A stretch of 64,000 nt of DNA, from positions 335,437 to 399,436 of the forward strand of contig JBMNNJ010000001.1 of the NCBI GenBank assembly GCA_050953885.1. Direction: 5' to 3'. The translations under genes were made by a program, and so were the position numbers. Positions 1-33,636 of the stretch are shown here, piece by piece. The notes under the pieces are model-generated. The model searched no databases and was not told the origin of the DNA. It saw only the letters and a program-made list of their open reading frames with translations. The first letter of the stretch is position 1, and every line of letters starts with the position of its first letter. Origin of the DNA: Patescibacteria group bacterium. GTDB taxonomy: Bacteria; Patescibacteriota; Microgenomatia; 0-14-0-10-38-17.

Positions 1-1917
1 GTCGGTTTTTTTTCTTTAGAGATGAGCCAGGAAGAATTGGTTGACCGTCTTCTTGTTCGTCAGGCACAAATTGACAGCTGGAAGTTAAAAACCGGCCGTT
101 TGGACGAAGATGATTTTGCCCGCCTTTCCGAAGCGATGGGAACTTTAGCGGAAGCGCCTCTTTTCATTGACGACACTCCGGGAATTTCGGTGGCGGAAAT
201 GCGCACTAAGGCCCGACGCTTACAAACAGAAAAAAGTTTGGATCTTATTGTCGTTGACTACCTTCAACTCGTTCACGGCCGTAATTTGGAAAATCGCGTT
301 CAGGAAGTTTCGGAAATTTCCCAAGGATTAAAAAATTTGGCCCGGGAACTTAAAGTGCCCCTCGTGGCTGTTTCCCAGCTTTCCCGAGCAGTAGAAATTC
401 GCGGCGGCCAACGCCCCCGTCTGGCAGACTTGAGGGAAAGTGGCTGTATTAGTGGTGATGCTCTTATCCAAATGGCCGACGGAGAACGAATCGCCATTGA
501 AAAATTAGCTTTAAAAAATAAACCTTTTTTGGTAATGAGTCTAAATGAAAAAACCTGGCAGCTTGAACCGGCCTTGGCAAAAAAAGCCTGGTGCAGTGGA
601 AAAAAATTAGTTTTCTGCCTTAAAACCCAATTGGGGCAAGAAATTAAAGCCAGTGCTAATCATCGCTTTTTCACCTCTTCTGGCTGGAAAAGGCTTGACC
701 AGCTTAAAGTAGGGGATTATATTGCTCTTGTTCGCTCTTGGAAAAACTTACCCCAAACAAAGCCAACCATGACCGCCGCTGAACTAGCCCTTCTTGGTCA
801 TCTTATTGGTGATGGCTGTACTCTTCCCAAACATGCCGTCCAATACACCACCAACGAAAAAGAATTAGCCGAAACGGTTGTTAAGGCTAGCAAGGATGTT
901 TTTGGGGAAAAAATCAACCCGAGAATAAAACGAGAACGAAATTGGTGGCAAGTTTATCTGTCTGCCGGTTATCCCTTAAGCCGCCACCAAAGAAACCCTC
1001 TTGCCGCCTGGCTGGATAAACTAAAAATATGGGGTTATCGCGCCAAAGAAAAAAGAGTCCCAGAAAAAGTTTTTAAACAGCCCCCTCAGGAAATCAGCCG
1101 ATTTTTACATCACCTCTGGCTTACCGATGGCAGTATCACCTTAAGCGGGAAGAAAAAAGAGCGACCGATAATATATTATGCTACCAGCAGCGATGTTTTA
1201 GCCAAGGACGTCCAACATTTGCTACTTCGTTTAGGAATCATCGCCAAAGTTCGGCGGGTAAAACAAAGAAATAAAGGAAAGGATCAATGGCATGTTATTA
1301 TTACCGGTCAGCCTGATATAACCGCTTTCATCGCTATTGTCGGTACCAGTGGGAAAAAACTAAAAAATCTAAATCTTATTAAAAAATATTATCAGCAGCA
1401 CCAGCATAATCCCAATAAGGACATTATTCCTAAAACGATGTGGTATTCTTTAGTAGAACCAGCGCGGCAGGCCCTAAAAATGAGCCAAAGAGAAATGCAA
1501 AAGCAAATAGGAGTTCATTATTGCGGGTCAACCCTTTTTAAGGCCAACATGAGCCGCCAGCGGGCTTTAAAAGTTGCTCAAGTTGTTCAGAACAAAACTT
1601 TGGAAAAAATCGCCAAAAGCGATGTTTATTGGGATAAAGTCGTTTCCATTAAGCCCTTGGGGGTAGAAAAAGTTTATGATATAGAAGTTCCCAGTTACCA
1701 CAATTTTGTTGCCGAAAATATTGTTATCCATAACTCCATCGAGCAGGATGCGGACGTGGTGATGTTTCTTTATCATGAAGACGAGGACGATCGCGAAAAT
1801 GTGGTTTTGGAAATCGCCAAACATCGCAATGGCCCTTTGGGACAAATTAATCTTCGCTTTATTCCCAAGCAAGTAAGCTTCTACCCGGTCGAGAAAAGGT
1901 TGGGGGAAGGGAAATAA
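1..1917 (+). CDS. dnaB: Replicative DNA helicase DnaB, C-terminal part interrupted by an intein. The 5' end lies upstream of the window; the frame is open to position 1.
   Basis: The translation aligns to DnaB from the conserved 'FSLEM(P)SEQ' region onward ([14 protein letters not shown] motifs). The host sequence breaks at ...DLRESG | C(445)ISGDALI... and resumes at ...VIHN(1734) | [16 protein letters not shown], the conserved C-terminal DnaB motif. There is no in-frame stop between position 1 and the annotated ATG at 22. Confidence 0.85.
445..1734 (+). mobile_element. DnaB intein (~430 aa) carrying a LAGLIDADG homing-endonuclease domain
   Basis: It starts with Cys (CISGDALI, block A-like) and ends in ...VIHN followed by the extein Ser. 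Internal LAGLIDADG-like motifs are [11 protein letters not shown] and LWLTDGSIT. Removing 445..1734 restores a contiguous DnaB motif. Confidence 0.8.
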
Positions 1918-2183: not shown

Positions 2184-2849
2184 ATGTTCCTAAACTTGCC
2201 TCTCATCAGCTTCCCCGTCTTTGGTTTGGTGTTATTTTTGGGCTTCCTCTTTTCCTCTTTTTGGTTTTTCAAAAACACCAAAGAAGAGTTTGTTGATGAA
2301 GAGCAGGCAATCAGCTTTATTTTTTGGATTTTCTTAAGCTGGCTTTTGGGTAGCCGCGTTATTTTTTTCTCAACTAACTTTAATTCTTTTCCTTCTTTTT
2401 GGACTCTTTTTCTGCCCTGGCAATATCCCGGCCTTTCTTTTGCCGGCGGAATATTGGGGATAGCTTTGGCCGCAAAAATCTGGGCGAAAAAAAACAAGTT
2501 TAATCTTTGGCGAGTTTCTGACCCGGCTCTTTTCCCTCTTCTTCTCTTTCAAGAATTCTTTTTTCTTGGCCAATTTTTGGCCACCCAAGAAAATTTTTAT
2601 TTTTTTGCCTTTCTTATCTTTCTTGCCGGCTTTCCTTTAGGGCTTTGGATTAAGAAGAAATATCGTTCTTTTTCCTGGTATCCTTCAGGAAAAATCGGTT
2701 TGACATTTTTAGCGGTTTTCGCTGTTACCTTACTCGCCTTTTGTCTACTTGCTTTTTGCCCTCCTTTTGGGTTATACTTTGAAGGTTTAGGAGCTCTTTT
2801 AATAGGAGGGCTAGCCGGTTGGCTAATTTACCAACGTCGCCAGCCATAA
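2184..2849 (+). CDS. Polytopic integral membrane protein, 221 aa, very Phe/Leu-rich; weak Lgt-like features only
   Basis: A long ORF with multiple hydrophobic segments. A 'GG..G...AAK......K...W.VSD.A..PL' stretch loosely recalls prolipoprotein diacylglyceryl transferase but lacks the GR.GN signature. It is preceded by the common upstream ATTCGCG/TTAACAATTTA module. Confidence 0.5.
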   Translation: MFLNLPLISFPVFGLVLFLGFLFSSFWFFKNTKEEFVDEEQAISFIFWIFLSWLLGSRVIFFSTNFNSFPSFWTLFLPWQYPGLSFAGGILGIALAAKIWAKKNKFNLWRVSDPALFPLLLFQEFFFLGQFLATQENFYFFAFLIFLAGFPLGLWIKKKYRSFSWYPSGKIGLTFLAVFAVTLLAFCLLAFCPPFGLYFEGLGALLIGGLAGWLIYQRRQP

Positions 2850-2864
2850 AAATTGAGAATAAAG

Positions 2865-3275
2865 ATGGCTAAGAAAAACAAAACCCAAACCAAAAATAAG
2901 CCAGAAAAAACAGCGATTCGTTTTCCGGCCAGCGTCTTAAAGCCCGTGGGCGACTTTTTGGTCAAAGAAGAAAAGGAAATTTTAAAAAAATTGCATCTTC
3001 TTTCCAAGGAGGATCCCTTTGCCAACCCGGCCCGCTTGGCAGATAATGCTGCCCCCGATAACGAGGCCTTGGAACAAATCGATCATCTTAAAAACCAAAG
3101 CCTGCAGGAACAGATGAAAAAAAACCTTATCCAAGTACGGCGAGCCCTGACACGTCTTAAAATCGGTAAATATGGCATCTGCGAGGAATGCGGCCAAATG
3201 ATTGATACCGACCGGCTGATGATTTATCCTCACGCCACCTTATGCGTTAAATGCGAGCAAAAGAAAAAGAAATAA
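2865..3275 (+). CDS. DksA/TraR-family C4 zinc-finger protein
   Basis: The C-terminal CEECGQMIDTDRL...CVKCE four-cysteine zinc finger is typical of the DksA/TraR family, with a coiled-coil-like N-terminal part. The ORF track starts at TTG 2853; ATG 2865 (MAKKNK) is the more likely start. Confidence 0.75.
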   Translation: MAKKNKTQTKNKPEKTAIRFPASVLKPVGDFLVKEEKEILKKLHLLSKEDPFANPARLADNAAPDNEALEQIDHLKNQSLQEQMKKNLIQVRRALTRLKIGKYGICEECGQMIDTDRLMIYPHATLCVKCEQKKKK

Positions 3276-4030
3276 AAGTGGGCGTTGACTATAATTTAAT
3301 TGACTACTCCTCTTACTGGCGAAACCGAGAGTATGAATGGGAAGCAGAAAAGATTGCTTTGGAAAAATTGTTTTCCCATATCCCCGGGAAAGAACAAAAA
3401 ATAATCTTAGAAATAGGGGGAGGGTTTGGCCGTCTGGCCGCGATTTACGCCCCTTTTTTCAAAGATGTTATTCTTCTTGAGCCGTCAGAAAAGCTTTTAA
3501 AAGAAGCGCAAGCAAATTTAGCCGCCCAAAAAAACCTCACCTTTCTTGCCGGAAGAGGGGAGGCGATTCCCCAAGAGGGCAAAAGCGTTGATGTGGCCTT
3601 AATGGTCCGTGTCAGCCACCATTTTCAGGATCTTAGCCCGGTGCTAAAAGAAATTAACCGTATCCTTAAACCCCAGGGGTTTTTAATTTTAGAATTTGCC
3701 AATAAAATTCATTTCAAAGCGCGCTTGCGGGCTTTGGGAAAAGGTGATTTTTCTTTTCGCAAAAACTTAACTCCGTTTGACCAGCGCCGGCAAAGCAGAA
3801 AAGACCCCGAAGTGGTTTTCTTAAATCATCATCCCCAAGCGGTTCTTAACGTTCTTTCTGAAAATAACTTTGAAGTTAAAAAAATCCTTTCCGTTTCCAA
3901 CTTTCGCTCCCCATTTTTAAAAAAAGTTCTTCCTCAAAAATGGCTTCTTTTTTGGGAAAAAAGCACCCAAAGTATTTTGGCCCCTTTTTGGTTTGGCCCC
4001 TCAATTTTTATCTTAGCCAAAAAAAATTGA
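3251..4030 (+). CDS. Class I SAM-dependent methyltransferase
   Basis: EIGGGFGR (motif I glycine-rich loop), DVILLEPS and VDVALMV spacing fit the methyltransferase fold. ATG 3251 overlaps the DksA-like gene by 25 nt; an in-frame GTG at 3278 is an alternative start. Confidence 0.7.
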   Translation: MRAKEKEIKVGVDYNLIDYSSYWRNREYEWEAEKIALEKLFSHIPGKEQKIILEIGGGFGRLAAIYAPFFKDVILLEPSEKLLKEAQANLAAQKNLTFLAGRGEAIPQEGKSVDVALMVRVSHHFQDLSPVLKEINRILKPQGFLILEFANKIHFKARLRALGKGDFSFRKNLTPFDQRRQSRKDPEVVFLNHHPQAVLNVLSENNFEVKKILSVSNFRSPFLKKVLPQKWLLFWEKSTQSILAPFWFGPSIFILAKKN

Positions 4031-4111
4031 TCCTCAATAAGCTGCTTCTCATTAATTCAATCCGCCAGCTGGCGAACAAAAGTCAAAAATTGTCTTCTGT
4101 ATCTGGTATTA

Positions 4112-4262
4112 AATATAAAAAACTCAAATGTTAAATCGCAAAACTCAAAACTACAACTCAAAACTCAAATCTAAAAAACATTTTTAAGTTCTAAGAAAGA
4201 TTTAAGATTTAACATGTAGTTTTGCCATTTGCCATTTGCGTTTTAAGTTTATTTTTCGCGCT
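4112..4262. repeat. Family A element, inverted copy; about 95% identical to 32960..33098
   Basis: AAACTCAAATGTTAAATCGCAAAACTCAAAACTACAACTCAAAACTCAAATCT...TTTGCCATTTGCCATTTGCGTTTTAAG. Confidence 0.7.
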
Positions 4263-4288
4263 AATTCGTGTCTTTTAACAATTTTAAC

Positions 4289-4909
4289 TTATTTCTTTGT
4301 CTTTCCTTCCTCAATTTCCGCCATAAATTGATTTACTCCCGCCGCCCAAGAGCCATTGGAAAGAGGAGTGTATTTGCTCATAATTTCCTCCGGCGTAGTT
4401 AATCCCTGATTAAGGTAATCCTCACGTAAACCACGGGCCACCGTTTCAATTGCTTCCTCCCAACCGGAAAAACCAAGCGTACCGCGGCTATGGATTCCCC
4501 AGCCCCAAGCGTTATAAGAACCCGGGGGAATTTTTTTGCCTAAATTCGATTCCTGTTGGGCAATGGCCACCAAAAGCCTATAGTCAAGATCATATTTTTG
4601 GGAAATAGCAAAAATATAATCGGCGTAAGGCTCAAGAGGCGAGTGGTAATAAGCTAAGTATTGTTTTAGCAAAACCGGCCGGGAATCAACGCCGCGAACT
4701 TCAAAAGAAAGATTACCACCGGTAGGGGGAAGAGCAGTGTAAAGCCGTAAAGAAGGCATAAAAGCCGCCGCTCCGACTACCGCTTTGCTACCCGCCTCTT
4801 TATTCTGGCCTAAAAGCCAAAAAGAGGAAAAAAGCGCCAACGGCGATAAAAACAAAAAAATCACCATCAAGAGCAGTTTGCCCAATAACGATTTTTTTAA
4901 TTTATCCAT
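4289..4909 (-). CDS. Membrane-anchored peptidoglycan-hydrolase-like protein (lysozyme-like; GH23 or GH73-type motif)
   Basis: An N-terminal signal-anchor (LLLMVIFLFLSPLALF) is followed by LVAIAQQESN...NAWGWG. This resembles the catalytic Glu region of lytic transglycosylases and FlgJ-type glucosaminidases (A.A..ES/ESGWG). Confidence 0.55.
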   Translation of the reverse strand: MDKLKKSLLGKLLLMVIFLFLSPLALFSSFWLLGQNKEAGSKAVVGAAAFMPSLRLYTALPPTGGNLSFEVRGVDSRPVLLKQYLAYYHSPLEPYADYIFAISQKYDLDYRLLVAIAQQESNLGKKIPPGSYNAWGWGIHSRGTLGFSGWEEAIETVARGLREDYLNQGLTTPEEIMSKYTPLSNGSWAAGVNQFMAEIEEGKTKK

Positions 4910-4965
4910 AAAAAACCCATCTCTCTAAACTTTAATAAAACAAAAAGTATTTGTCAAGTCAAGGT

Positions 4966-5692
4966 AATAAGTTAAGATACATATGCGACATTGATAGTTA
5001 GTGGATCACTACGCCAAGGCCTATCCCATCTTTAGTAGAATTAAAGGCTTAAAGGAGGTGAAAAACATGCTTTCAAGCCTAAGACAATTCTCTAAGAGTG
5101 AGGCAGCTCAACAAAGAATGAAGATTATTAAGTTCTACCAACAATACGGAGAAAAAGCAACTAAGAATTAAACACTCACCTAAACCAAGGGGCTTTGGCG
5201 ATATTGTTTCTGATACCGTAGAGAGAATCACCGATGGGATTAGGGACTATTTTATCTCTACTGTTGATGCCAAGATGAAATTTGCCCTGACTCTTAATTA
5301 CCAAAGACTAACCAGTAAGAAGATGAGAGATTTTTACTTTAGATTTAAAGATGTCTACCCGGGGAAAGTGGCTGTTTGACAATCAGATAATGGCGGTGAG
5401 AACTTAGGAGTCTTTGACCAACAATTAGCTAAGGATAAGATTCCCATTATTTCATCTCTCCCCGTTGTCCTAAGATTGATACCTTGGTGGAAAGATACCA
5501 CCGCACTTCTCAAGAGGAGTTTATTAATCCCCACCTTGACACTATTCATGACAAAGGGGTCTTTCAAAGAAAACTATCTGATTATTTAATCTGGGACAAC
5601 ACGGAAAGACCCAATCATTCTTTAAACCTTAAGAGCCCCTTGGAATATTTCATTGAAAAAGGAGGCATGTCGTAAAAGTACTTGGCTTAGAC
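4966..5692 (+). mobile_element. Decayed insertion-sequence remnant (DDE/rve-type transposase fragments), copy 1 of 2 identical direct repeats
   Basis: A 727-bp block is identical to 8300..9026 (offset 3334 bp). It carries an N-terminal HTH-like ORF fragment (MLSSLRQFSKSEAAQQRMKIIKFYQQYGEKATKN*) and rve-core fragments ...SDNGGENLGVFD... and ...PRCPKIDTLVERYHRTSQEEF... in different frames. The conserved DDE Glu (ERYHRT) is present but the gene is internally deleted and frameshifted. Confidence 0.8.
5063..5675 (+). pseudogene. Transposase pseudogene (IS481/IS3-like rve integrase core, truncated and frameshifted)
   Basis: The HTH fragment stops after 35 codons. The DNGGE(N) and ERYHRT motifs lie in frames +1 and 0 respectively, about 35 codons apart as in intact rve domains. 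Total coding capacity is about 200 aa against about 350 aa for an intact transposase. Confidence 0.7.
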
Positions 5693-5698
5693 AAAAAC

Positions 5699-5727
5699 TT
5701 GACTTTTACCCCGTTGTGTTATAAGAT
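5699..5727 (+). promoter_or_regulatory. Sigma70-like promoter directly outside IS copy 1, facing the radical-SAM gene
   Basis: TTGACT (5699-5704), a 17-nt spacer, then TAAGAT (5722-5727). A strong RBS AAAGGAGAG (5951-5959) sits 6 nt before ATG 5966. Confidence 0.5.
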
Positions 5728-5965
5728 TTACGTATCTCATAATAATCAATGGTAGGCAATTTTGCTGTCTATTTTTTGGTTATTATTAAAGATCATTTTT
5801 TTCAGGCAAAGTAAGCGGTTTTTGACAAAAGCGTCAAAAAAAACCAAAATACTTTGTTTTGGAAAATATTCAGTTTTGGTCCGCCTCAGGTGGAGCACCT
5901 TGACAAGTTGTAATTACCTCCATCAATGATTCCTTCTGGCCTTAATTTATAAAGGAGAGATTCTC

Positions 5966-7294
5966 ATGTTTCGCACTCTATCCGCCCCGGTCGTTTTACA
6001 GTGGGAAGTTACTCCGGATTGTAATCATGCCTGTCTACATTGTTATAACTATTGGAGAGGGTTTGGTGAGGAGCCAAGCGCATCAGAAGATGTCTGTGAG
6101 ATCTATCGGGCTGCAACCAAAGAAATTATCTGTAACAGGGTTTTTTCTGTGGTGATTACCGGTGGAGAACCGCTTTTGGTTTTTGACCAAGTAAAGCCAC
6201 ATATCCGACAGCTGGTGCAAGCAGGCGTTCATGTTTCACTCAACACTAATTTGTCTCTTTTTAACAGACAGATAGCTGTTGAGCTCAAGGAGCTTGGAGT
6301 TCGTTCCATTTTGACGTCTCTCCCTTCCTTTGATCCGGAGACCAATGATTACATCACCCAAACCCCGGGATCTCATCGTCGGATCACCCGCGGGATACGT
6401 ACTGCTCTCGAAAGTGGTTTCAAGGTAGCCGTCAATATGGTAGTAACCAAGGTAAACCTCTCGCAGGTTTACCAAACCGCCGAATATGTAGCCAATCTAG
6501 GAGTTAAATCCTTTGCGGCTACCAAAGCAGCTACCCCAAACAACTGCCCCGATTTCAGTGCATTTGCTCTAGGCCTTGATGAATTTCGTTGGATGTTGTA
6601 CGAACTTATCAAAGCTAAAGAGCGATTGGGTCTAGAAAGCATCGATTCACTTGAATTCTACCCTTATTGTGCCTTCGACGAGGTAACAAGAGCAGTTTTC
6701 AGTAGTCGAATGTGCAGTGCCGGCAAAACCAATTGCACAATCGGTTTTAACGGCCAAGTTAGGCCTTGCTCGCGAGCTGAACATACCTACGGTGATATTC
6801 GGGAAGGGCTAACTAACGCTTGGGGTCGAATGACTCCATGGAGAACAAATGAATGGTTGCCGGAACAATGCTCAACATGTCAGTTGAAAAACAAATGTGG
6901 AGGAGGTTGCAAGGTAGACGCGCAGAGAACAACGGGGGATATCAAACAACCAGATCCAATTTGTGATTTCTCACAGTTGCCCGTGCGTTTACCTTCTGTA
7001 CGGGAACCCAGCCCTGATGGAACAGAGTTTCTTGTCAATCCTAGCATGGTCTTTCGACCGGAAAGTTTTGGAGGGATACTCTACGTTTCTTCTGGGCACT
7101 GGGCGATAGTTGTTCAGGAGTTGTATCAGCTATTTGCATCTGGAAAGGAGGTGGTGAGTATCGAAGATATCGTATCCGCTTTGGGTTGTTCTCTAAATGA
7201 GGCAACCGCTACAGTGTCGTATCTTGTTCGCAAATTCATTCTGAAGGTAGCAAAAGGGGGTTCTTATGCCAGCGGGAATTGTTTCGTTGCTTGA
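5966..7294 (+). CDS. Radical SAM enzyme with C-terminal SPASM domain and a probable C-terminal winged-helix (RRE-like) extension; candidate peptide-modifying maturase
   Basis: CNHACLHC (CX3CX2C radical-SAM cluster motif) and GGEPLL (SAM-binding). The SPASM signature is CSTCQLKNKCGGGCK (C-x2-C-x5-C-x3-C) plus upstream Cys/Gly and a downstream PICDF Cys. The ~110-aa tail (IEDIVSALGCSLNEATATVSYLVRKFIL) looks like a winged-helix peptide-binding domain. Codon usage differs from neighbouring housekeeping genes. Confidence 0.85.
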   Translation: MFRTLSAPVVLQWEVTPDCNHACLHCYNYWRGFGEEPSASEDVCEIYRAATKEIICNRVFSVVITGGEPLLVFDQVKPHIRQLVQAGVHVSLNTNLSLFNRQIAVELKELGVRSILTSLPSFDPETNDYITQTPGSHRRITRGIRTALESGFKVAVNMVVTKVNLSQVYQTAEYVANLGVKSFAATKAATPNNCPDFSAFALGLDEFRWMLYELIKAKERLGLESIDSLEFYPYCAFDEVTRAVFSSRMCSAGKTNCTIGFNGQVRPCSRAEHTYGDIREGLTNAWGRMTPWRTNEWLPEQCSTCQLKNKCGGGCKVDAQRTTGDIKQPDPICDFSQLPVRLPSVREPSPDGTEFLVNPSMVFRPESFGGILYVSSGHWAIVVQELYQLFASGKEVVSIEDIVSALGCSLNEATATVSYLVRKFILKVAKGGSYASGNCFVA

Positions 7295-7412
7295 GGAGCA
7301 AGAGGTCAGTTGCGTCATCGGCTGTGATCAAGACGGCGGTTCTGACCCGTGCGACTCTTGCGACAACGGCGGTGATTGCGTTTGTGATGCTGGGGATGGT
7401 ACCTGGACCTAA
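7266..7412 (+). CDS. Small Cys/Asp/Gly-rich peptide (48 aa), candidate RiPP precursor (SCIFF/ranthipeptide- or sactipeptide-like)
   Basis: The peptide is MPAGIVSLLEEQEVSCVIGCDQDGGSDPCDSCDNGGDCVCDAGDGTWT, with 6 Cys and 9 Asp in the C-terminal 33 residues after a short acidic leader. Its ATG at 7266 overlaps the 3' end of the radical-SAM/SPASM gene in another frame and is preceded by a GGGGG RBS-like run. It is not in the supplied ORF track because it is under 60 aa. Confidence 0.55.
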   Translation: MPAGIVSLLEEQEVSCVIGCDQDGGSDPCDSCDNGGDCVCDAGDGTWT

Positions 7413-7620
7413 TCAAAGTGGCTTGATGACGGTCACAGTATCGCCTCAGTAGTTCTAAGAGCATCTATTGGTGAAAACCAAAATCACAACTTGTTTGTGG
7501 TTGCTTTTTAAGCTAGATGCTCTTTTTCTTTTTCAAATTTGCTATAATGCTCTAAGAGAATTATCGAGGCCGTAGCGCCGCTGTATAATAATCTGAGTCG
7601 TTCATTTTAAAATAAAAGGT

Positions 7621-8283
7621 GTGGTTTTTGTCGTTAAATATTCACTAGAAAAAGATATTTGGAATCATTTGAATTCGAACTGGAGATTTCGTTTTCGAAA
7701 ATATGGAAGAAAGAATATTCAGAAAAAACTGCTTCAAACTTATCCCGAAGAATATCGCCGCAATCTCGCTCAAGCCAAAACAGAAAAAGAAGCCACGGTT
7801 GTTATTAAAAGTTTTTTAGCCTCTTTACCTAAAAGTTTTCAAAATACTACCCCAATAATTGGCAAAGGAGTCGAGAAAGTTCTGAACGAAGAAAAAAAGC
7901 AGATAATTTCTTCTTTAGAAAAACTTTATGGTAAACCTTTTCCATTTAAAGAAATAACTGTTTATCTTACCACTGGCACTATTCACCCATATAATTATAA
8001 AGAAAGATGGTTTATGACTGGAAGAAATTCCAGCCTTGATAAGCATATTAAAACCGCTAAACACGAACTTAACCATTTTATGTTTTATTACTATTATCCT
8101 CATTTAAGGAAGAAGTTGGGTGTTGAGAAATATGAAAGACTAAAAGAGGCTTTAGCAATATTCACTAATCCTGAAGGTAATGATAAGCCCGATGTAAAAA
8201 AGTTGGAGAAATATCTAAAAACGCTTTCAGGTCAACCAATGGATGAGATTATAGAGAAAGCTTTGGGAAGTAAATATTTGTAA
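7621..8283 (+). CDS. Hypothetical protein with an HExxH zinc-metallopeptidase-like motif; AT-rich (~33% GC), compositionally foreign
   Basis: A 220-aa ORF with a GTG start and KTAKHELNHFMFYYY (HELNH = HExxH). Two extended -10 boxes (TGCTATAAT 7533-7541, TGTATAAT 7582-7589) lie upstream. GC is far below the flanking genes. Confidence 0.55.
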   Translation: MVFVVKYSLEKDIWNHLNSNWRFRFRKYGRKNIQKKLLQTYPEEYRRNLAQAKTEKEATVVIKSFLASLPKSFQNTTPIIGKGVEKVLNEEKKQIISSLEKLYGKPFPFKEITVYLTTGTIHPYNYKERWFMTGRNSSLDKHIKTAKHELNHFMFYYYYPHLRKKLGVEKYERLKEALAIFTNPEGNDKPDVKKLEKYLKTLSGQPMDEIIEKALGSKYL

Positions 8284-8299
8284 GTTCTCGAGAGTACTG

Positions 8300-9026
8300 A
8301 ATAAGTTAAGATACATATGCGACATTGATAGTTAGTGGATCACTACGCCAAGGCCTATCCCATCTTTAGTAGAATTAAAGGCTTAAAGGAGGTGAAAAAC
8401 ATGCTTTCAAGCCTAAGACAATTCTCTAAGAGTGAGGCAGCTCAACAAAGAATGAAGATTATTAAGTTCTACCAACAATACGGAGAAAAAGCAACTAAGA
8501 ATTAAACACTCACCTAAACCAAGGGGCTTTGGCGATATTGTTTCTGATACCGTAGAGAGAATCACCGATGGGATTAGGGACTATTTTATCTCTACTGTTG
8601 ATGCCAAGATGAAATTTGCCCTGACTCTTAATTACCAAAGACTAACCAGTAAGAAGATGAGAGATTTTTACTTTAGATTTAAAGATGTCTACCCGGGGAA
8701 AGTGGCTGTTTGACAATCAGATAATGGCGGTGAGAACTTAGGAGTCTTTGACCAACAATTAGCTAAGGATAAGATTCCCATTATTTCATCTCTCCCCGTT
8801 GTCCTAAGATTGATACCTTGGTGGAAAGATACCACCGCACTTCTCAAGAGGAGTTTATTAATCCCCACCTTGACACTATTCATGACAAAGGGGTCTTTCA
8901 AAGAAAACTATCTGATTATTTAATCTGGGACAACACGGAAAGACCCAATCATTCTTTAAACCTTAAGAGCCCCTTGGAATATTTCATTGAAAAAGGAGGC
9001 ATGTCGTAAAAGTACTTGGCTTAGAC
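8300..9026 (+). mobile_element. Decayed IS remnant, copy 2 (identical to 4966..5692, same orientation)
   Basis: Identity is exact over 727 bp. The identical predicted ORF pairs 5355..5567/8689..8901 and 5484..5675/8818..9009 confirm the 3334-bp offset. Confidence 0.8.
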
Positions 9027-9208
9027 ATAAGGTTGCCATTTTTAAAAAAATAAGTTAAAATAACTTTTATTATGAACAAAACTCATCAAAAAAACCAGCC
9101 GGTGCCGAAAAAAGATAAAAAAGAGGTCTTAGCAAAAGCGACTTTTTTCCGTCCCCAGCCGAAAAAAATTTTTCGGGTGGCCCAGCATCGCGTTTAACCA
9201 AACTTCCC

Positions 9209-10066
9209 ATGGCGCAAATAAATCTCAACAAACTTCCTGATAATAGTGCGGAAATCTTGGTCAAAGTCCCCTGGGAAGAAGTTGAAAAAGAATACCAAAA
9301 AGCCCTTGAGGAGCTTCAAAAAGAAGCCACTCTTCCCGGCTTTCGCAAGGGCAAGGCTCCCAAGGCTCAAGTGGAAAAATCAATTGGCAAAGAAAAAATT
9401 TATCAAGAAGTAATCGAGCAATTAATACCCCGCCTTTACCAAGAAGCGCTAACAAGCCAAAAAATTAACCCCATCATTAGCCCTAAGGTAGAGCTCATTG
9501 CGGCCCAAGAAGGAAAAGATTGGGAAATAAAATTTACCACGGCGGAAAAGCCAACGGTTAGCTTAGGAAATTACCAGGAGGAAATTAAAAAAATAAACAC
9601 CAAGGGAAAAATTTGGACACCAGAAAGCGAAGAGAAAAAAACCCCAGAAGAAAAAGAAAAGGAAGAAAGAGAAAAGCTTGACCAAATTATAGAAACAATT
9701 CTAAAAGCAAGCCAAGTAACCTTACCGGCTATTTTATTGGAAAACGATGTTAACCAGAAACTTGCCGGCTTAATCGAAAAAACCGAAAAGTTAGGCCTTA
9801 CTTTGGAGCAATACCTTGCTTCCCTTGGCAAAACCGCCGCCGAAATTCGCCGCGAATACGAGGAGGAAAGCCGTCGTAATTGGCAGTTAGAATTGGTTTT
9901 GGCAAAAATTGCCGACGAGGAAAAAATTACCGTTAGCGATGAGGAAATTAACCAATTTATCGCCAAAACGCCGCAAAGTGATCAAAAAGCCCTAGAACAA
10001 CAACGCTACTTAATCGCCGCCATGCTAAGACAACAAAAAACCCTCAATTTTTTAAAAAATCTTTAA
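9209..10066 (+). CDS. tig: Trigger factor (short form lacking the PPIase domain)
   Basis: The N-terminal ribosome-binding signature LPGFRKGKAP (GFRxGxxP) is followed by a C-terminal arm-domain-like region. At 285 aa there is no FKBP insert. Confidence 0.75.
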   Translation: MAQINLNKLPDNSAEILVKVPWEEVEKEYQKALEELQKEATLPGFRKGKAPKAQVEKSIGKEKIYQEVIEQLIPRLYQEALTSQKINPIISPKVELIAAQEGKDWEIKFTTAEKPTVSLGNYQEEIKKINTKGKIWTPESEEKKTPEEKEKEEREKLDQIIETILKASQVTLPAILLENDVNQKLAGLIEKTEKLGLTLEQYLASLGKTAAEIRREYEEESRRNWQLELVLAKIADEEKITVSDEEINQFIAKTPQSDQKALEQQRYLIAAMLRQQKTLNFLKNL

Positions 10067-10109: not shown

Positions 10110-10712
10110 ATGAAAAGCCAGGGCCAAAGCCAAAAAACAGCCAGCAGCGCTCTTGGTGAAGAGCTAAAAAGAACTCTAAGGGAAGAACTAACCCAAAATT
10201 TCCCCGCGGAAATTACCGCCCAAATTCAGGGAGAAAAACCTGCCTCCCAGGAAATTCTTCCCGGCCAAAGTGTTAATCTTACTGAAAAAGTTAACCAAGA
10301 ACAAAAACCTCCCTTTATCCCTTCTTTTTATCAGGAAAAATCGCCGTTTATTTTGAAAGAAAGCGCGACGGAAATAGAAACTAAAATTAGTATCCAAAGC
10401 TTGCGGCAAGAAATCCAAAAAGAAAGCCAGAGAGTAGAGGAGGCGGCGGTTAACTTAAGCCAAGAGCTGGCTTCAAGCGTGGCCGAGGAAAATCTTTTTC
10501 CTCACCAAGCTACCCAGGAACACCTTTCTTTTTTAGAAAACCTCTTAAAAACCTTGCGCGTTTTTCGGGAAAAAATCGAGGATAGCCAAGTTTGGCTAGC
10601 CGCCTCAAGTCAACGCCAAAGCCGACGCAATTTTTTCTGGGGACAGGTAAAAAAATCCGGCAGTAAATTTCTTCTTTCTTCCGATCGTACCCCCGCCACC
10701 CAGACAGGGTAA
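10110..10712 (+). CDS. Hypothetical protein (low-complexity, Gln/Glu/Ser-rich)
   Basis: A 200-aa ORF with no recognisable motif. Confidence 0.4.
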   Translation: MKSQGQSQKTASSALGEELKRTLREELTQNFPAEITAQIQGEKPASQEILPGQSVNLTEKVNQEQKPPFIPSFYQEKSPFILKESATEIETKISIQSLRQEIQKESQRVEEAAVNLSQELASSVAEENLFPHQATQEHLSFLENLLKTLRVFREKIEDSQVWLAASSQRQSRRNFFWGQVKKSGSKFLLSSDRTPATQTG

Positions 10713-28739: not shown

Positions 28740-29255
28740 CTATTTATTTCTTAAAAAAATTGTCTTGGTAAAAGTTTGCCGGGCGGTTTCCTCGGGTTTC
28801 GTCGAGCTACCACGTTGTCTTAAAGTAAAATTAATGGTCACTTTTTTATCAAAATCAATTTTCTCGCATCGAAAAACTTCAGAGCAATTTTCTACGGTTA
28901 CTGTTGGGCTGGTTAATTGAACGTTATTAGAGGCAATATAGGCAAGATCAGAACTATAATTGCACCTAAAAATAACCGTCTCCTCGCTAACAGGATTTTT
29001 AACCGTAAGAGAAGAGCTTTCCACACCCGTGCAGACAGCATCATCAATAACGCCACCACTAATGGTTTTATCCATCACATCCAAGGCATAGGCACCGTTT
29101 TGACGAATTTCTTTCATAATGTTGGCTTTCGTGTTACTTTTTAAAATTGAAAAAAGAGAGTTAGTCACCAAAACGGCTAAGATCATAAAAACGGCCACCA
29201 CGACGAGGAGTTCGATGAGGGTAAAACCATGGCGGCATTTAGTATTGGGTATCAT
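28740..29255 (-). CDS. Prepilin-type (type IV pilin/pseudopilin) protein
   Basis: MIPNTKCRHG|FTLIELLVVVAVFMILAV is a class III signal peptide with Gly-1, Phe+1 and Glu+5. Confidence 0.75.
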   Translation of the reverse strand: MIPNTKCRHGFTLIELLVVVAVFMILAVLVTNSLFSILKSNTKANIMKEIRQNGAYALDVMDKTISGGVIDDAVCTGVESSSLTVKNPVSEETVIFRCNYSSDLAYIASNNVQLTSPTVTVENCSEVFRCEKIDFDKKVTINFTLRQRGSSTKPEETARQTFTKTIFLRNK

Positions 29256-29481
29256 GTATCAAATAAAATTCAAAAGTTAATCCGCCAGCTGGCGGACAGA
29301 ATTATCCCCGTAGCTGTCATCCTGACGAAAGTCAGGATCTAACTGATTCTGAATCAAGTTCAGAATGACGTTTACGCAAGAATAATGTTATTCGCTCATT
29401 CGTGTCCATTCGTTTTCATCCGTGTCAATTCGCGTATTTTATTATACTTAATACTAAGTACTGAATACAAAATGCTAATTT

Positions 29482-29919
29482 TCACCATCTAGTGAGATAA
29501 GTCACCACTTCCTCCCGATGCTCGCCTTGACTGTCGGTCCAAGAAGTGGTCAGCGTAAACTTAATCTTATCTTGGCTTTCTTTAACAACATTAACCTGTC
29601 GCTTAAAAGTACTGTCAATCAACTCATTGGAATTACACCCTCGGTGGCGACCAAGATCAAGATTGTTAAGGCAATAAACACCGTCTGCAAGTTTATTCCA
29701 AAATTCTGACCAGCCCTTAGCCCGTTCCGAACGCAGCCATTCGGTGGCTTGGCGATTTAATTCCATCGCCCGCGCCCGGGTGCGGGAATACTGAATATTA
29801 CGCACCGCCACGGTAGCCCCCGCCACCAAAGCCACCAAAATAAGCATGGCAATGGCGGTGGTTACCACCACCTCTACCAACGACTGGCCGGAGGAAGAAG
29901 AGTTAGTATTAAGTATCAT
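29482..29919 (-). CDS. Prepilin-type minor pilin-like protein
   Basis: MILNTNSSSSG|QSLVEVVVTTAIAMLILVALV, with Glu+5 and a hydrophobic helix. Confidence 0.6.
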   Translation of the reverse strand: MILNTNSSSSGQSLVEVVVTTAIAMLILVALVAGATVAVRNIQYSRTRARAMELNRQATEWLRSERAKGWSEFWNKLADGVYCLNNLDLGRHRGCNSNELIDSTFKRQVNVVKESQDKIKFTLTTSWTDSQGEHREEVVTYLTRW

Positions 29920-29996
29920 GTATTAAATAAAATTCAAAATTCAAAAGTTAAAAGTCAAAAGTACAAGTTAAAATTCAAAAATAATAAATAAACTCA

Positions 29997-30140
29997 AATC
30001 TTAAATGTCAAAACTCAAAACTACAACTCAATCCGCCAGCTGGCGGATCAAATCTAAAAAAACAACTTTAAACTTTAAAAAAGTTTTAACATTTGCCATG
30101 TAGATTTAACATTTGACATTTGCGTTTTGAGATTTTTTGA
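29997..30140. repeat. Family A element carrying an embedded 16-bp perfect palindrome TCCGCCAGCTGGCGGA (30032-30047)
   Basis: The module-within-module arrangement recurs. Other perfect copies of the palindrome are at 11223-11238, 29281-29296, 32302-32317, 37994-38009, 39346-39361 and 41360-41375, with about 10 degenerate copies more. Confidence 0.7.
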
Positions 30141-30298
30141 TTCTGACTTTCGTCAGAATGACGAACCGCCTCATCCATTACACATTACTAGTTACGGCGC
30201 CAGTCATTCGCTCATTCGCATCCATTCGTTTCTCATTCGCGTTAATTCACGTCTCCCAGCAATAACAATTTAACAGTTTAGCAAGCAATATATTCTTC

Positions 30299-30769
30299 TC
30301 ACTCTATCTCCCCATTTTTCCTAATAGTTACCGTTTTGGGAGGACGACTGCCTAAATTTAGACTAATAGTAACTTCTTCAACCGATAAGTTTGTTGCCCC
30401 TGTCAAGGGAGCAAAAATAAAGCTGCTTGGATTTGGCACAGAACCGCTCACTCCTGAAGGGTAAGAATAGGTTTGGGGTGAGCCTACCAAAGAACCGCCG
30501 CATTTTTCTTGAATAAAATACCTATCACTCGCAAAACTAACTTGATAACCACCAGCGGGACCGTCACAGCTTTTTTTTACCGCCATCGCCCAACTGCGGG
30601 CCAAACGAAGATTGTTTTTTAAATCCTGGGCGGCCGCGTCCAAGGTTTGCTGTTGGTTAAAAGTTTGCCAGGAGGCCAGGCCAAAACCAGCCAAAAGCAG
30701 GATAATACTGGTGGTTACCAAAAGCTCGATGAGGGTAAAAGCAGGTTTATATTTCGTATTTAGTATCAT
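30299..30769 (-). CDS. Prepilin-type minor pilin/pseudopilin (GspH-like)
   Basis: MILNTKYKPA|FTLIELLVTTSIILLLAG followed by NLRLARSWAM. Confidence 0.65.
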   Translation of the reverse strand: MILNTKYKPAFTLIELLVTTSIILLLAGFGLASWQTFNQQQTLDAAAQDLKNNLRLARSWAMAVKKSCDGPAGGYQVSFASDRYFIQEKCGGSLVGSPQTYSYPSGVSGSVPNPSSFIFAPLTGATNLSVEEVTISLNLGSRPPKTVTIRKNGEIE

Positions 30770-31073
30770 GTATCAAATAAAATTCAAAATTTAAAATTCA
30801 AAAGTTAAAAGTCAAAGATAATAAGTAAACTCAAATGTTAAATCGCAAAACTCAAAACGACAACTCAAAACTAAAATCTAAAAAGCAACCTTAAGCTTTA
30901 AAAAGTTTTAACATTTGCCATGTAGATTTGACATTTGCCATTTGCGTTTTGAGTTTACTTTTCGCGTCCATTCGTTTTCCATTCGCGTCCATTCGCGTAT
31001 TTCATTTCATGGTAGCGAAATTAAGAAGAATTTGCAAGCAAGACAACAACAATCAAGATAAAGTAGGGGAGGA

Positions 31074-31511
31074 TTATGGTGATTTTAAGCCGTACTCATG
31101 ACCCGAGTAAGGAGTACAAGAATCAGTTGGATTACTGGCTTCCATATCTGACGATAGACAATACCCATAATAATGCCCCCCCGAGAGATTGGTGGCTTTA
31201 TAATAATAAACTTCCCCTGTTTTGGGAGGGGAAGGAATCGGAGAAATATAGTTAGCTAAAGGTGTCCCTAAGTTAGAAGTATTAGTCCAATTACCATTAC
31301 CGGTGTTGGGATACCAGTTATTATCCGCTTTATACATCTCCAGCGCCGCCCGAATTTGTTCCAAATCCGCTTTTCTTTTAGCATCCCGGGCCTGACGATT
31401 GGCCGCCTGATAGGAAACCACACCAATGGAGGTTAAAAGAGCAATAATCGTTGCCGCCACCAAAACTTCGATGAGGGTAAAACCGGGTTTGTGTTTAGTA
31501 TTTGGTACCAT
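31074..31511 (-). CDS. Type IV pilin with GspG/PulG-like N-domain
   Basis: MVPNTKHKPG|FTLIEVLVAATIIALL...ANRQARDAKRKADLEQIRAALEMYKADNNWYP, a GspG signature. Confidence 0.75.
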   Translation of the reverse strand: MVPNTKHKPGFTLIEVLVAATIIALLTSIGVVSYQAANRQARDAKRKADLEQIRAALEMYKADNNWYPNTGNGNWTNTSNLGTPLANYISPIPSPPKTGEVYYYKATNLSGGHYYGYCLSSDMEASNPTDSCTPYSGHEYGLKSP

Positions 31512-31641
31512 AAAAGACGCGAATGAGCGAATGATTGGTAAAGCACACCGGATTAAACAGGATGTTTACGGATGAAACAGGATAAAAAATCCTCTTATTA
31601 AATCCCGCCCTAAATCCTATTATATCCCGTGTGCTTTTTTC

Positions 31642-32067
31642 CTACTGTAAATTCTTAACACAAAAATAATCTTTTGGCGAACCGGCAAAATTACAATTTG
31701 CCGCTGAATTACCACCCCCCGACTCTAAGCGAGCACAAAAACAGTAACTAGTGGAGCTGCAAGAAGAACTATAAACGTAAGGGCTAACATTTTTAGGATC
31801 AGTGGGAATAGAAAAACTATTATCGGATTGAATTGGCAAAGGATTAGGACACGGAGAACCAGGATAAGAACCGCTATGTGCCGCATAATATTGCTCAAAA
31901 GCGTTTTGGATTGCCTTCATGTCGCCCTGCCTCTTGGAATCCCGGGCCCTTTTTTGGGCGGTGGAGTAGGAAACCGTGCCCATCGCCACTAAAATGCCAA
32001 TAATGGCAATAACAATCAAAAGCTCTAAAAGGGTGAAGCCACGACGGTCTTTAGTATTTGGGATCAT
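31642..32067 (-). CDS. Type IV pilin with GspG/PulG-like N-domain
   Basis: MIPNTKDRRG|FTLLELLIVIAIIGILVA...AQKRARDSKRQGDMKAIQNAFEQYY. Confidence 0.75.
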   Translation of the reverse strand: MIPNTKDRRGFTLLELLIVIAIIGILVAMGTVSYSTAQKRARDSKRQGDMKAIQNAFEQYYAAHSGSYPGSPCPNPLPIQSDNSFSIPTDPKNVSPYVYSSSCSSTSYCFCARLESGGGNSAANCNFAGSPKDYFCVKNLQ

Positions 32068-32418
32068 GTGTTAATAAAATTCAAAATTCAAAAGGCAAAA
32101 GTCAAAATTGCAAGTTAAAATTCACTTCGCCAGCTCGCGGATTCGTCAGGATGACAACCACAATTAGCGTCATTCTGAACTTGATTCAGAATCAGTTAGA
32201 TCCTGACTTTCGTCAGGATGACAGCTACAGGGATGATTCTGCCCGCCAACCGGCGGATAAAATTCAAAAATAAAGCAAAAAAACTTTTAACTTTTTACTT
32301 GTCCGCCAGCTGGCGGATTGAATTTTAACTTTTAACTTTTGAATTTTTCTATACTTAATATTATTTTTAATCCCTTTCCCTTTTTTAACTATACCTCATC
32401 CTTTCTCCAAAAAGCAAG

Positions 32419-32907
32419 TCATGGTTCCGTGCGCATAATACCCACATCATTAGGGCAATCCACCCCTAAATTTGCCTCCACTACCGCATCAGGATCGGAT
32501 TTGTTTTCCAAACAAGCAACCAGTTTATAAGTCAAGTTATCACCGGCAACTCGGGGTTTAACTAAAACATAACGCCAACCGACACTTCCTGTTTGAGGAT
32601 CACAAGGAAATTTAGGCATATAAATTGTTCCCTTCGCTGACTGCCAAGAAGCATTACAATCTACCGGTTTACAAAAAGAATCACAAGTTACTGGTCGAAA
32701 AGGGTCGCCGCCAGTCGGATAAGCCGGCGGTGATTGGTCCATTTTGTAAAGTTCTAAAGCTTTCTGGATTTGCTCCAAATCCGATTTTCTTTGCGCGTCG
32801 CGCGCCCGCTCCCGGGCGCTCATATAATTGGGCAAAATCAAGCCCGCCAAAAGGCCGATGATCACCATCACCACCAAAAGCTCAATAAGAGTAAAACCAA
32901 ATTTCAT
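32419..32907 (-). CDS. Type IV pilin with GspG/PulG-like N-domain
   Basis: MKFG|FTLIELLVVMVIIGLLAG...ARERARDAQRKSDLEQIQKALELYK. The likely start is the internal Met (MKFGF), 8 codons into the track ORF. Confidence 0.75.
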   Translation of the reverse strand: MKFGFTLIELLVVMVIIGLLAGLILPNYMSARERARDAQRKSDLEQIQKALELYKMDQSPPAYPTGGDPFRPVTCDSFCKPVDCNASWQSAKGTIYMPKFPCDPQTGSVGWRYVLVKPRVAGDNLTYKLVACLENKSDPDAVVEANLGVDCPNDVGIMRTEP

Positions 32908-32959
32908 TGTTTCATTGTTATATTGTTTCATTATTGGGAGATAAATAATGCGTAATAAA

Positions 32960-33098
32960 CAAACTCAAAACTCAAATGTTAAATCGCAAAACTCAAAACT
33001 ACAACTCAAAACTCAAATCTGAAAAACACTTTTAAGCTCTAAGAAAGATTTAAGATTTGACATGTAGTTTTGCCATTTACCATTTGCGTTTTGAGTTT
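32960..33098. repeat. Family A element (near-identical to 4120..4262)
   Basis: Direct sequence comparison. Confidence 0.7.
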
Positions 33099-33144
33099 AT
33101 TTTTCGTGTCCATTCGTTTTCCCTTCGCGTTAATTCGCGTCTTT

Positions 33145-33636
33145 TTAATCGCAACTCGTGTTCGCGCTGGCCAGACAATAATTACATTTTGTCGGCCCGC
33201 AATTAGTGCCAAAATAGCCTCCCTCTTTGCAAGCTCCCCCGGGCAAAAAACAACTATCATTCTCATGCTCAATCCAAGCATAAAGCTTAAAGTTGGTGCC
33301 GTCTGACATATAAAAATAGTGGGCATTATCCGCCGGATCCTTGGGGAGTTGTTTCATATAAGTAGTTTTCCCGTCAGTAAATTCTCCTCCCCAATAAATA
33401 GTCGCCACCCCGGGAATCATAATATTGCCCTCATTTCCACCGGTGCTTAAAGGATATTGCTTGTGATCATTATAATACATTTCTAACGCCCGCGCTATTG
33501 ACGCTAAACTCTCTTTTCTTTGCGTATCTCGACCTCGTTTTTGGGCGGTAAAAAATTGCCCCAAGCCCACACTTGCCAAAATTCCCAAAATCGCCACCAC
33601 CACGAGGAGCTCGATCAGGGTAAAACCAAATTTCAT
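33145..33636 (-). CDS. Type IV pilin with GspG/PulG-like N-domain (paralog of 32419..32907)
   Basis: MKFG|FTLIELLVVVAILGILAS...AQKRGRDTQRKESLASIARALEMYYNDHKQYP. The 5' leader is nearly identical to the neighbouring paralog. Confidence 0.75.
   Translation of the reverse strand: MKFGFTLIELLVVVAILGILASVGLGQFFTAQKRGRDTQRKESLASIARALEMYYNDHKQYPLSTGGNEGNIMIPGVATIYWGGEFTDGKTTYMKQLPKDPADNAHYFYMSDGTNFKLYAWIEHENDSCFLPGGACKEGGYFGTNCGPTKCNYCLASANTSCD

Follow-up and report, generated by a model that had tools for sequence, protein, structure and literature searches.

Positions 5966-8283 of the 64-kb stretch of DNA analysed here (contig JBMNNJ010000001.1 of a Patescibacteria group bacterium; 64,000 nt, hereafter the window) very probably hold a three-gene maturation cassette of the type that yields peptides made on ribosomes and modified after translation (RiPPs). 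Its three genes code for a 442-residue radical S-adenosylmethionine (SAM)/SPASM enzyme with a C-terminal domain that resembles peptide-recognition elements, a 48-residue Cys/Asp/Gly-rich putative precursor and a 220-residue HExxH protein that is probably the leader peptidase (Table 1). The original prediction for this locus had described an unannotated RiPP module in which a radical SAM/SPASM maturase is paired with the Cys/Asp-rich precursor encoded next to it. Synteny and conservation support this description, with the module enlarged from two genes to three by the inclusion of the conserved HExxH protein. The small open reading frame (ORF) is a coding gene that is conserved, under selection and regularly associated with the enzyme gene. 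Apart from the domains of the enzyme, none of the three products is covered by a curated family of NCBIfam or Pfam. By analogy with known systems, the modification may be a thioether, with the probabilities for and against evenly balanced.

Maturase and its C-terminal domain

The assignment of the enzyme to the radical SAM/SPASM proteins, made previously from a CNHACLHC motif and a full SPASM signature, was borne out by both the motifs and the profile scores. The protein reached 77.2 bits against Pfam Radical_SAM (PF04055; gathering score 29.5), which places it in the superfamily, as well as 22.3 bits against Pfam SPASM (PF13186; cutoff 21.5) and 45.8 bits against NCBIfam SPASM (TIGR04085; cutoff 27), the check suggested with the prediction, which places it in the SPASM subfamily. 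In an alignment of 30 family members, all three Cys of the CX3CX2C motif (C19, C23 and C26), expected to bind the SAM-cleaving [4Fe-4S] cluster, are invariant. The SPASM signature is composed of C250-x12-G263-x4-C268, C302-x2-C305-x5-C311-x3-C315 (CSTCQLKNKCGGGC) and C333, together with C257; of these positions, C250, C257, C268, C302, C305 and C311 are invariant in the same alignment and C315 is nearly so. The closest solved structures by sequence were PqqE and SkfB, with PqqE as the best match, and the top matches of the predicted fold included the peptide maturases SuiB, ChlB, SkfB, PqqE, TigE and CteB (ranked eighth) as well as anSME (ranked second). The last ~14 residues of the enzyme, which are unconserved and were modelled with low confidence, owe their existence to a reading frame that continues into the peptide gene; in the related locus L083, the enzyme stop codon lies 3 nt before the peptide ATG.

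The enzyme ends in an extension of ~106 residues, which had been likened to a peptide-recognition domain. Conservation across the family reaches approximately residue 428, and residues 354-428 form four beta-strands followed by three helices in the AlphaFold2 (AF2) model, with block values of the predicted local distance difference test (pLDDT) of 90-97. Within this segment, R364, E366, G369 and L420 are invariant in the family alignment, and F368 and W379 are nearly invariant. A RiPP precursor recognition element (RRE) was defined by a beta-sheet of three strands with a winged-helix bundle of three helices after it, plus a sequence relation to PqqD/MftB-type proteins. Twenty-one of 28 family C-terminal domains matched the MftB model (TIGR03967), all of them below its cutoff (best E value 1.6e-5; window enzyme, 15.6 bits; cutoff 33), no match was obtained to Pfam PqqD, and a profile search against the sequences in the PDB gave weak, generic winged-helix matches only. 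The model topology and the sub-cutoff MftB matches agree with the likeness proposed before, and residues 354-428 are read here as a putative recognition element of the MftB/PqqD type, carried at the C-terminal end of the enzyme.

Conservation of the precursor gene

The 48-residue peptide begins with a hydrophobic leader strand (MPAGIVSLL), continues with an acidic linker and a Cys/Asp/Gly-rich core with six Cys in total, and ends in GTWT. Its gene overlaps the last 29 nt of the enzyme gene (7266-7294) in another frame, exactly as described in the original prediction. For an assessment of its conservation, homologues of the enzyme were collected (1100 proteins at E <= 1e-10, mostly aligned over 94-99% of the query) and 80 loci were drawn from species-representative genomes. 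These loci were scanned on the same strand for ORFs of 30-100 codons with at least four Cys, starting between -60 and +500 nt from the enzyme stop codon. Such an ORF was found in 58 of the 77 homologous loci with enough downstream DNA, as compared to 208 of 3331 random anchors (6.2%), which corresponds to an excess of ~12-fold over background. After manual inspection, with the addition of peptide genes that had been missed by the filter or lay upstream, ~66 of the 80 loci contained a Cys-rich peptide ORF.

The peptide encoded in L001 is identical to that of the window, and close variants (P0232-P0234) had already been called as genes by the pipelines of three other sources. Locus L083 has the same gene order as the window (enzyme, peptide, 219-residue protein), and its peptide was called by another pipeline. 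Over the last 31 codons of the peptide gene, window and L083 differ in 19, with 17 synonymous and 2 non-synonymous changes, and the translations of the other two frames diverge. An alternative 57-codon ORF (7279-7452) was rejected, as its translation is not conserved between these two loci. In L086, where the enzyme has dropped to 55% identity, the final 22 residues of the peptide (GPCDSCDNGGDCVCDAGDGTWT) are unchanged, and the peptides of L085 (enzyme 61% identical) and L087 (53%) retain the leader, as MP(A/T)GIVSL or PGIVAL, with different cores. The presence of the small ORF across loci, its synonymous bias and the shared leader and core thus identify it as a genuine gene under selection, with purifying selection shown for the peptide frame.

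By its own terms, the original prediction would fail if the enzyme grouped with non-RiPP SPASM proteins and had no conserved small ORF after it in homologous loci, or if the peptide ORF were not conserved or translated in related genomes. It survives the test for a conserved small ORF, as the counts above show. A rival explanation would make the ORF a chance frame next to a non-RiPP SPASM protein, such as an AhbD/NirJ-like haem enzyme or an anSME-like maturase. AhbD and NirJ2 are indeed among the best NCBIfam matches of the enzyme and its relatives, and anSME was the second-best fold, but these models scored 92-134 bits against cutoffs of 500, and neither haem nor sulfatase genes are conserved near the enzyme in the 80 loci. 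With the ORF enriched and its own frame under purifying selection, in contrast to the diverging alternative frames, a chance origin is extremely improbable.

The HExxH protein

Searches of Pfam, NCBIfam and the PDB sequences with the 220-residue protein gave noise only, leaving the predicted fold as the sole informative comparison. This fold is gluzincin-like and resembles M1, thermolysin and other gluzincin peptidases. The HExxH motif and a downstream Glu (E176) on a zincin fold, the defining features of the gluzincin type, are thus present at the level of motif and predicted structure. Database homologues of the protein (family A) are all labelled hypothetical and carry no Pfam domain, and several of them come from contigs equal in length to contigs with homologues of the enzyme. 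As determined by BLAST and subsequent iterated hidden Markov model (HMM) searches, family A homologues adjoin the enzyme in ~36 of the 80 loci, and another protein of ~220 residues (family B), with an HExxH-x17-WLxEG motif and weak matches to Peptidase_MA_2 and BSP, takes the same position in 25 other loci. A member of one or the other family accompanies the maturase in 58 of 80 loci; 51 of 80 combine enzyme, peptide and HExxH gene. When neighbours within 3.5 kb of the enzyme were clustered, only these two HExxH families recurred. A methyltransferase gene seen in the window and upstream of L002 was considered as a further component and discarded, since it is not a conserved cassette partner. 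Motif, predicted fold and synteny together suggest that the 220-residue protein is probably the leader peptidase.

The same motif would also suit an iron/alpha-ketoglutarate-dependent oxygenase that beta-hydroxylates Asp or Asn residues of the core, in the manner of ChlH, BpmH and PflC, which likewise work alongside radical SAM enzymes. The fold of alpha-ketoglutarate-dependent HExxH enzymes is zincin-like; they frequently occur as fusions with radical SAM domains and hydroxylate Asp and His in RiPPs (PMC12636437), a precedent that accords with the Asp/Asn-rich cores of the present family. The third protein, however, did not match the model for these hydroxylases (TIGR04267/IPR026337) at E <= 0.01, and it is a separate protein, in comparison with the ChlB-ChlH and FxsB-type pairings of radical SAM and HExxH domains. 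The interchangeable position of family B, with its M1-type motif and peptidase-like matches, also argues against an oxygenase. In addition, the radical SAM partner is oxygen-sensitive and the host lineages are mostly anaerobic. Hydroxylation is therefore considered quite unlikely, and leader removal is retained as the proposed role.

The region between the peptide and peptidase genes has an unusually stable predicted fold (7405-7625; -60.1 kcal/mol; z = -3.45 relative to shuffled sequences), which contains a long-range stem and, after it, a T-run, together forming a tentative terminator-like element (Table 1). A consensus scan did not call a terminator at 7457-7534. Together with the extended -10-like sequence that follows it, the segment 7457-7548 may act as a terminator or attenuator and an internal promoter that set the peptide-to-peptidase ratio.

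Composition of the precursor cores

Core statistics were taken over 64 precursors. A hydrophobic strand recurs near their N-terminus (GIVSL, GILRL, GYVSLL, GFVSM, FETIL or FFVNVYS), followed by a variable, often acidic linker. The cores contain 3-12 Cys, most commonly 5 or 6, spaced as CxC in 143 and CxxC in 77 of 322 cases. The residue after Cys is Asp in 147, Asn in 48, Tyr in 41 and Glu in 38 instances (Asp, Asn and Glu together, 233), and usually only 2-4 residues follow the last Cys. Most cores carry a negative net charge, down to -13, and aromatic residues are common near their C-terminus (GTWT, CDWG, CYGG). The core of the window subfamily is built of C-D units and also contains two CX3D spacings (C29-D33 and C40-D44). 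Some subfamilies have nearly acid-free cores (CYCNCGCACVVTG and CYCHCACACHVTG).

Two variations on the cassette were observed in the locus set. In L025, L028 and L032 (Levybacteria/Patescibacteria), there is an overlap between the family B HExxH gene and the stop codon of the enzyme gene, and the precursor, located approximately +724 nt past that stop, has a Pro/Cys-rich rather than a Cys/Asp-rich core (PPLPPPCFGKPPPPCVGRPPPPCYGGCYGG). In L010 (Daviesbacteria, LCBT01000003.1), a second Cys-rich small ORF, ending in GSCDCDAGCFNCNCNCVIVCT, lies upstream of the main cassette (2335-4810, minus strand) and adjoins a family B HExxH protein and a 487-codon ORF on the opposite strand; this group may represent a second, divergent cassette at the same locus.

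Relation to known maturation systems

A radical SAM/SPASM maturase paired with a Cys-rich precursor is a well-known arrangement. The present family differs from known systems in the lack of a curated family, the C-terminal position of the recognition domain, a distinct core grammar, the mini-zincin partner and its natural-product-poor host lineages. The best NCBIfam equivalog for the enzyme was GeoRSP (TIGR04303), with 111.7 bits over nearly the full length (cutoff 400), followed by AhbD with 103.7 bits (cutoff 500). The enzyme is not a member of the MftC (TIGR03962; 88.2 bits, cutoff 265), PapB (NF047865; 77.2 bits, cutoff 340) or PqqE (TIGR02109; 75.2 bits, cutoff 381) families, and the SCIFF maturase model (TIGR03974) was outside its best 25 NCBIfam matches, so that its score lies below ~46 bits. 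Ten relatives spread across the family did not reach any curated NCBIfam equivalog cutoff either. When eleven diverse precursors, including that of the window, were compared with NCBIfam at E <= 1, no credible match to a precursor family, the SCIFF model (TIGR03973) included, was obtained; one of them gave two chance matches (E values 0.13 and 0.76). Because the tested curated models miss the family, annotation built on them leaves the enzyme unnamed. No description of the enzyme family was found in a partial, open-licence subset of the literature on radical SAM peptides of Patescibacteria (candidate phyla radiation, CPR), so its absence from the literature is unproven. GeoRSP is itself an uncharacterised system, which also uses a PqqD-family partner, and at a score so far under its cutoff no function can be transferred from it.

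The original prediction had read the pair as ranthipeptide/SCIFF- or sactipeptide-like. In its most specific form, membership in the SCIFF or PapB-type family, the enzyme would be an orthologue of CteB or PapB that links the six Cys to Thr or Asp. Six Cys interleaved with Asp in 48 residues, the two CX3D spacings and the presence of PapB among the NCBIfam matches of the enzyme speak for this explanation. The Cys pattern turned out to be a coincidence: a variant at 98% identity carries Phe in place of Cys16, and the number of Cys in close relatives ranges from 4 to 10. The maturase of the SCIFF peptide thermocellin (CteA), CteB, has an N-terminal recognition domain and was only eighth by fold, whereas the domain of the window family is C-terminal and MftB-like. 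For the freyrasin system PapB/PapA, the PapB model likewise scored far under its cutoff with the window enzyme, and no peptide model matched the precursor. The family core consists of C-[D/N/E/Y] units with dominant CxC spacing rather than CX3D, and the cassette, unlike the PapB and CteB systems, has a small HExxH partner and is found mainly in Patescibacteria. PapB forms Cys-Asp and Cys-Glu thioethers and accepts Cys-Xn-Asp with n = 0-6 (PMC9413430). On the evidence of these sequence comparisons, membership of the pair in the SCIFF or PapB family is refuted, and we regard this explanation as highly improbable.

The resemblance to the mycofactocin and PQQ systems is broader. PqqE is the best solved relative, MftC and PqqE are among the NCBIfam matches, a short precursor lies beside the enzyme, and in 21 of 28 members the C-terminal domain bears a sub-threshold likeness to MftB, a recognition chaperone of the RRE type that stands alone. 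These likenesses raise the possibility that the peptide, instead of being a secreted natural product, gives rise to a cofactor used inside the cell or to a metal-binding peptide of the metallothionein-like CxC kind, formed by carbon-carbon (C-C) or other non-thioether modification. The strongly acidic, CxC/CxxC-rich cores of the family are indeed similar to metal-binding peptides, aromatic residues are frequent near the end of the cores, the family is kept in many very small genomes, and no transporter or immunity gene is conserved within 3.5 kb. Cofactor precursors such as PqqA and MftA, however, have a fixed reactive motif, whereas core length, Cys number and sequence vary greatly between lineages here, and the window peptide lacks both the GVY end of MftA and the E-x3-Y motif of PqqA. 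The MftC and PqqE scores are also far too low for membership, the recognition domain is fused to the enzyme, and genes for downstream cofactor processing are missing from the cassette. A cofactor or metal-binding precursor thus appears decidedly improbable.

Among sactipeptide maturases (SkfB, AlbA), SkfB is close to the window enzyme by both fold and sequence. SkfB has a Twitch domain instead of a full SPASM domain and an N-terminal RRE, and sactipeptide precursors contain few Cys and are not Asp-rich, unlike the window peptide. In sactipeptides, the Cys sulfur is bound to an alpha-carbon, whereas the thioethers of ranthipeptides connect it to a non-alpha carbon.

Proposed pathway and points against it

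In the proposed pathway, the 48-residue product would serve as precursor, with its leader strand (PAGIVSL) bound by the MftB/PqqD-like domain of the enzyme. Judging from what is known of the enzyme family, the radical SAM core would convert SAM to a 5'-deoxyadenosyl radical that abstracts hydrogen within the Cys/Asp-rich core, assisted by two SPASM auxiliary clusters. The likeliest outcome would be several intramolecular Cys-S cross-links, formed as thioethers to side-chain carbons of Asp, Asn or Glu or to alpha-carbons and giving rise to a compact, acidic, polycyclic peptide. The HExxH...E protein would remove the leader.

Several observations weigh against this pathway or parts of it. The thioether step is drawn from composition and analogy. 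Subfamily cores such as CYCNCGCACVVTG are nearly devoid of Asp, Asn and Glu, so that a link from Cys to acidic side chains cannot account for the reaction in every member. The closest relatives of the enzyme by sequence (PqqE, MftC, GeoRSP, AhbD and NirJ2) form C-C bonds or act on tetrapyrroles rather than making thioethers. Given the Asp-poor subfamilies and the PqqE/MftC-like affinities, the common reaction may consist in alpha-carbon thioethers, C-C links or something new. All eight conserved Cys of the SPASM region are present in the enzyme and do not by themselves indicate an open coordination site for a substrate Cys. The RRE call depends on the sub-threshold MftB matches (15.6 versus 33 bits) and the topology of a model. 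No transporter or exporter, immunity gene or regulator recurs within 3.5 kb of the enzyme. Finally, L002 (enzyme 55% identical) and L003 (49%), which come next after L085 and L086 among the closest loci from genomes or metagenomes, contain no Cys-rich small ORF within the fetched flanks. L003 retains a family A HExxH gene 62 nt past the enzyme, and in both loci the precursor may be encoded elsewhere or lost.

A more far-reaching interpretation is that the family constitutes a large, undescribed RiPP class of ultra-small episymbionts, with a novel type or topology of cross-link, installed by a PqqE/MftC-like SPASM enzyme with its fused MftB-like domain, and maturation by a mini-zincin. Its products could, for example, be densely cross-linked along C-[D/N/Y]-C repeats, through vicinal or i/i+2 links, and their role would lie in the interaction of symbiont and host or in the handling of metals, not in that of a classical bacteriocin. 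As a whole, this interpretation is rather unlikely.

Distribution and significance

A profile search of 1.84 billion representative sequences yielded up to 1,537 clusters (50% identity) at E <= 1e-30, of which at least 150 scored above 327 bits, most of those spanning nearly the whole profile. Most of the named hosts belong to the Patescibacteria (groups of Microgenomates, Daviesbacteria, Shapirobacteria, WWE3 and Parcubacteria), and the gene content of the window fits such a host. Further hosts are Clostridia, including the cultured Lachnospiraceae bacterium 10-1, as well as Anaerolineae, Caldisericia, Bacteroidota and one Woesearchaeota archaeon. The archaeal locus (L080; JAWABG010000013.1, 2269-4381) carries a full cassette with enzyme, a peptide ending in YDCDCGDSCDGDGCDGGSCDGGDS and a family B HExxH protein. 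Its occurrence in a metagenome-assembled genome of the DPANN group suggests either that the cassette was exchanged between episymbionts of the two domains, bacterial and archaeal, or that the contig was mis-binned.

The genomes of Patescibacteria (CPR) are tiny and regarded as poor in secondary metabolism, and yet very many of them keep the cassette. A peptide core that stays identical while the enzyme drops to 55% identity points to a specific, important target. With its three defined and easily synthesised genes, the system lends itself to the study of PqqE/MftC-like chemistry on peptides with CxC/C-D repeats and provides a possible handle on episymbiont-host interaction or metal handling. 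It also offers a new leader-RRE pair and a very small putative leader peptidase for peptide engineering. If the chemistry amounts to ordinary Cys-Asp thioethers, the cassette would still be a useful broadening of the ranthipeptide class, to a region of the tree of life where that class is new.

Flanking repeats and base composition

The cassette is bracketed by two 728-bp direct repeats that are 100% identical and have no further copy in the window. Each contains a transposase gene that, according to three-frame translation, is broken over three frames, with the helix-turn-helix, core and C-terminal pieces parted by stop codons and frameshifts; the stitched translation matched PF13683 (rve_3) with an E value of 1.1e-4 and 22.3 bits, under the cutoff of 26.5. 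No inverted repeats were found in a search of positions 4000-10000, and the repeats do not qualify as a functional insertion sequence (IS) or composite transposon, of which an intact transposase ORF, terminal inverted repeats and a target-site duplication are the hallmarks. The flanking IS copies invoked in the original prediction as a sign of horizontal acquisition therefore exist as identical repeats, albeit as decayed remnants rather than functional elements. The different codon usage that it had also adduced does not apply to the enzyme, whose GC content (0.466) and GC content at third codon positions (GC3; 0.42) lie within the host range (0.439+-0.025 and 0.437+-0.039, respectively). Only the third gene is odd (GC 0.321, GC3 0.258), at ~4.6 standard deviations below the window genes, next to the compositionally normal enzyme gene.

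Because the two copies of a decayed gene are identical, they imply a recent event. One possibility is that a unit of repeat plus cassette recombined into a resident copy of the repeat, and the position of the cassette is consistent with a recent gain by recombination. The arrangement could also have arisen during assembly, by threading into the chromosome of a circular or otherwise separate element of 3,334 bp (repeat plus cassette). An assembly graph cannot separate the two layouts when repeats are identical over 728 bp, and L001, a separately obtained short-read contig whose cassette is 98% identical, breaks off at its right end after the first 24 nt of the right-hand repeat. On the other hand, L004, L010 and L016 carry the cassette within chromosomal contigs of 275-485 kb. 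We assign an artefact a low probability; it would bear on the location of the cassette alone, not on its identity.

Table 1. Coordinates of the cassette, its motifs and the flanking repeats in the window.
Feature	Position	Strand	Basis
Left copy of 728-bp perfect direct repeat with decayed DDE (rve-type) transposase gene	4966..5693	+	
AAGGAG, Shine-Dalgarno-like, 8 nt 5' of enzyme ATG	5952..5957	+	Read from sequence
Enzyme gene, 442 aa, radical SAM/SPASM peptide maturase with C-terminal RRE-like domain	5966..7294	+	
CX3CX2C (CNHACLHC), putative SAM-cleaving [4Fe-4S] cluster-binding motif	6020..6043	+	3/3 Cys invariant in 30 family members
SPASM domain, residues 250-333	6713..6964	+	Span of TIGR04085 match
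MftB/PqqD-like putative peptide-recognition (RRE-like) domain, residues 354-428	7025..7249	+	AF2 model, conservation, sub-threshold MftB matches
AAAGGGGG, Shine-Dalgarno-like, 5 nt 5' of peptide ATG, inside enzyme gene 3' end	7253..7260	+	Read from sequence; GGGGG at 7256-7260
Putative precursor peptide gene, 48 aa, MPAGIVSLLEEQEVSCVIGCDQDGGSDPCDSCDNGGDCVCDAGDGTWT	7266..7412	+	
Long-range stem (AAGAGCATCTA / TAGATGCTCTT) then TTTTTCTTTTTC, tentative terminator-like element 3' of peptide gene	7457..7534	+	Folding, read from sequence
TGcTATAAT, extended -10-like sequence	7540-7548	+	Read from sequence
Third gene of the cassette, GTG start, 220-aa zincin-like HExxH...E protein, probable leader peptidase	7621..8283	+	
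HELNH (HExxH), putative metal-binding motif of third gene	8062..8076	+	Invariant alignment columns
E176, candidate third metal ligand of third gene	8146-8148	+	Invariant alignment column
Right copy of 728-bp perfect direct repeat	8300..9027	+	

Other features of the window

The remainder of the window encodes housekeeping functions (DnaB, ThrRS, PheT, PBP1A, RecG, PilB, GyrB, GyrA, PPDK, CysS and DnaX), and an Rfam scan of the window returned a single tRNA-Val only. Downstream of the right repeat lies the gene for a trigger factor (9209-10066, plus strand) of only 285 residues, which contains Trigger_N and Trigger_C without the peptidyl-prolyl isomerase (PPIase) domain, followed by a DUF5660 protein (10110-10712, plus strand); both fit a reduced, Patescibacteria-type genome. 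The DnaB helicase ORF (22-1917, plus strand), which runs off the start of the window, has an intein-like insertion at residues ~142-589. This insertion matches models of GyrA, RecA and RtcB that contain inteins, and it interrupts the match to the helicase. At 28740-34470 (minus strand), at least seven consecutive small genes (141-235 codons) contain the N-terminal methylation motif of type IV pilins. Two of them also match T2SSG, and a PilB-type ATPase is encoded nearby (39471-41177, minus strand); pilin gene arrays of this type are often seen in episymbiotic Patescibacteria.

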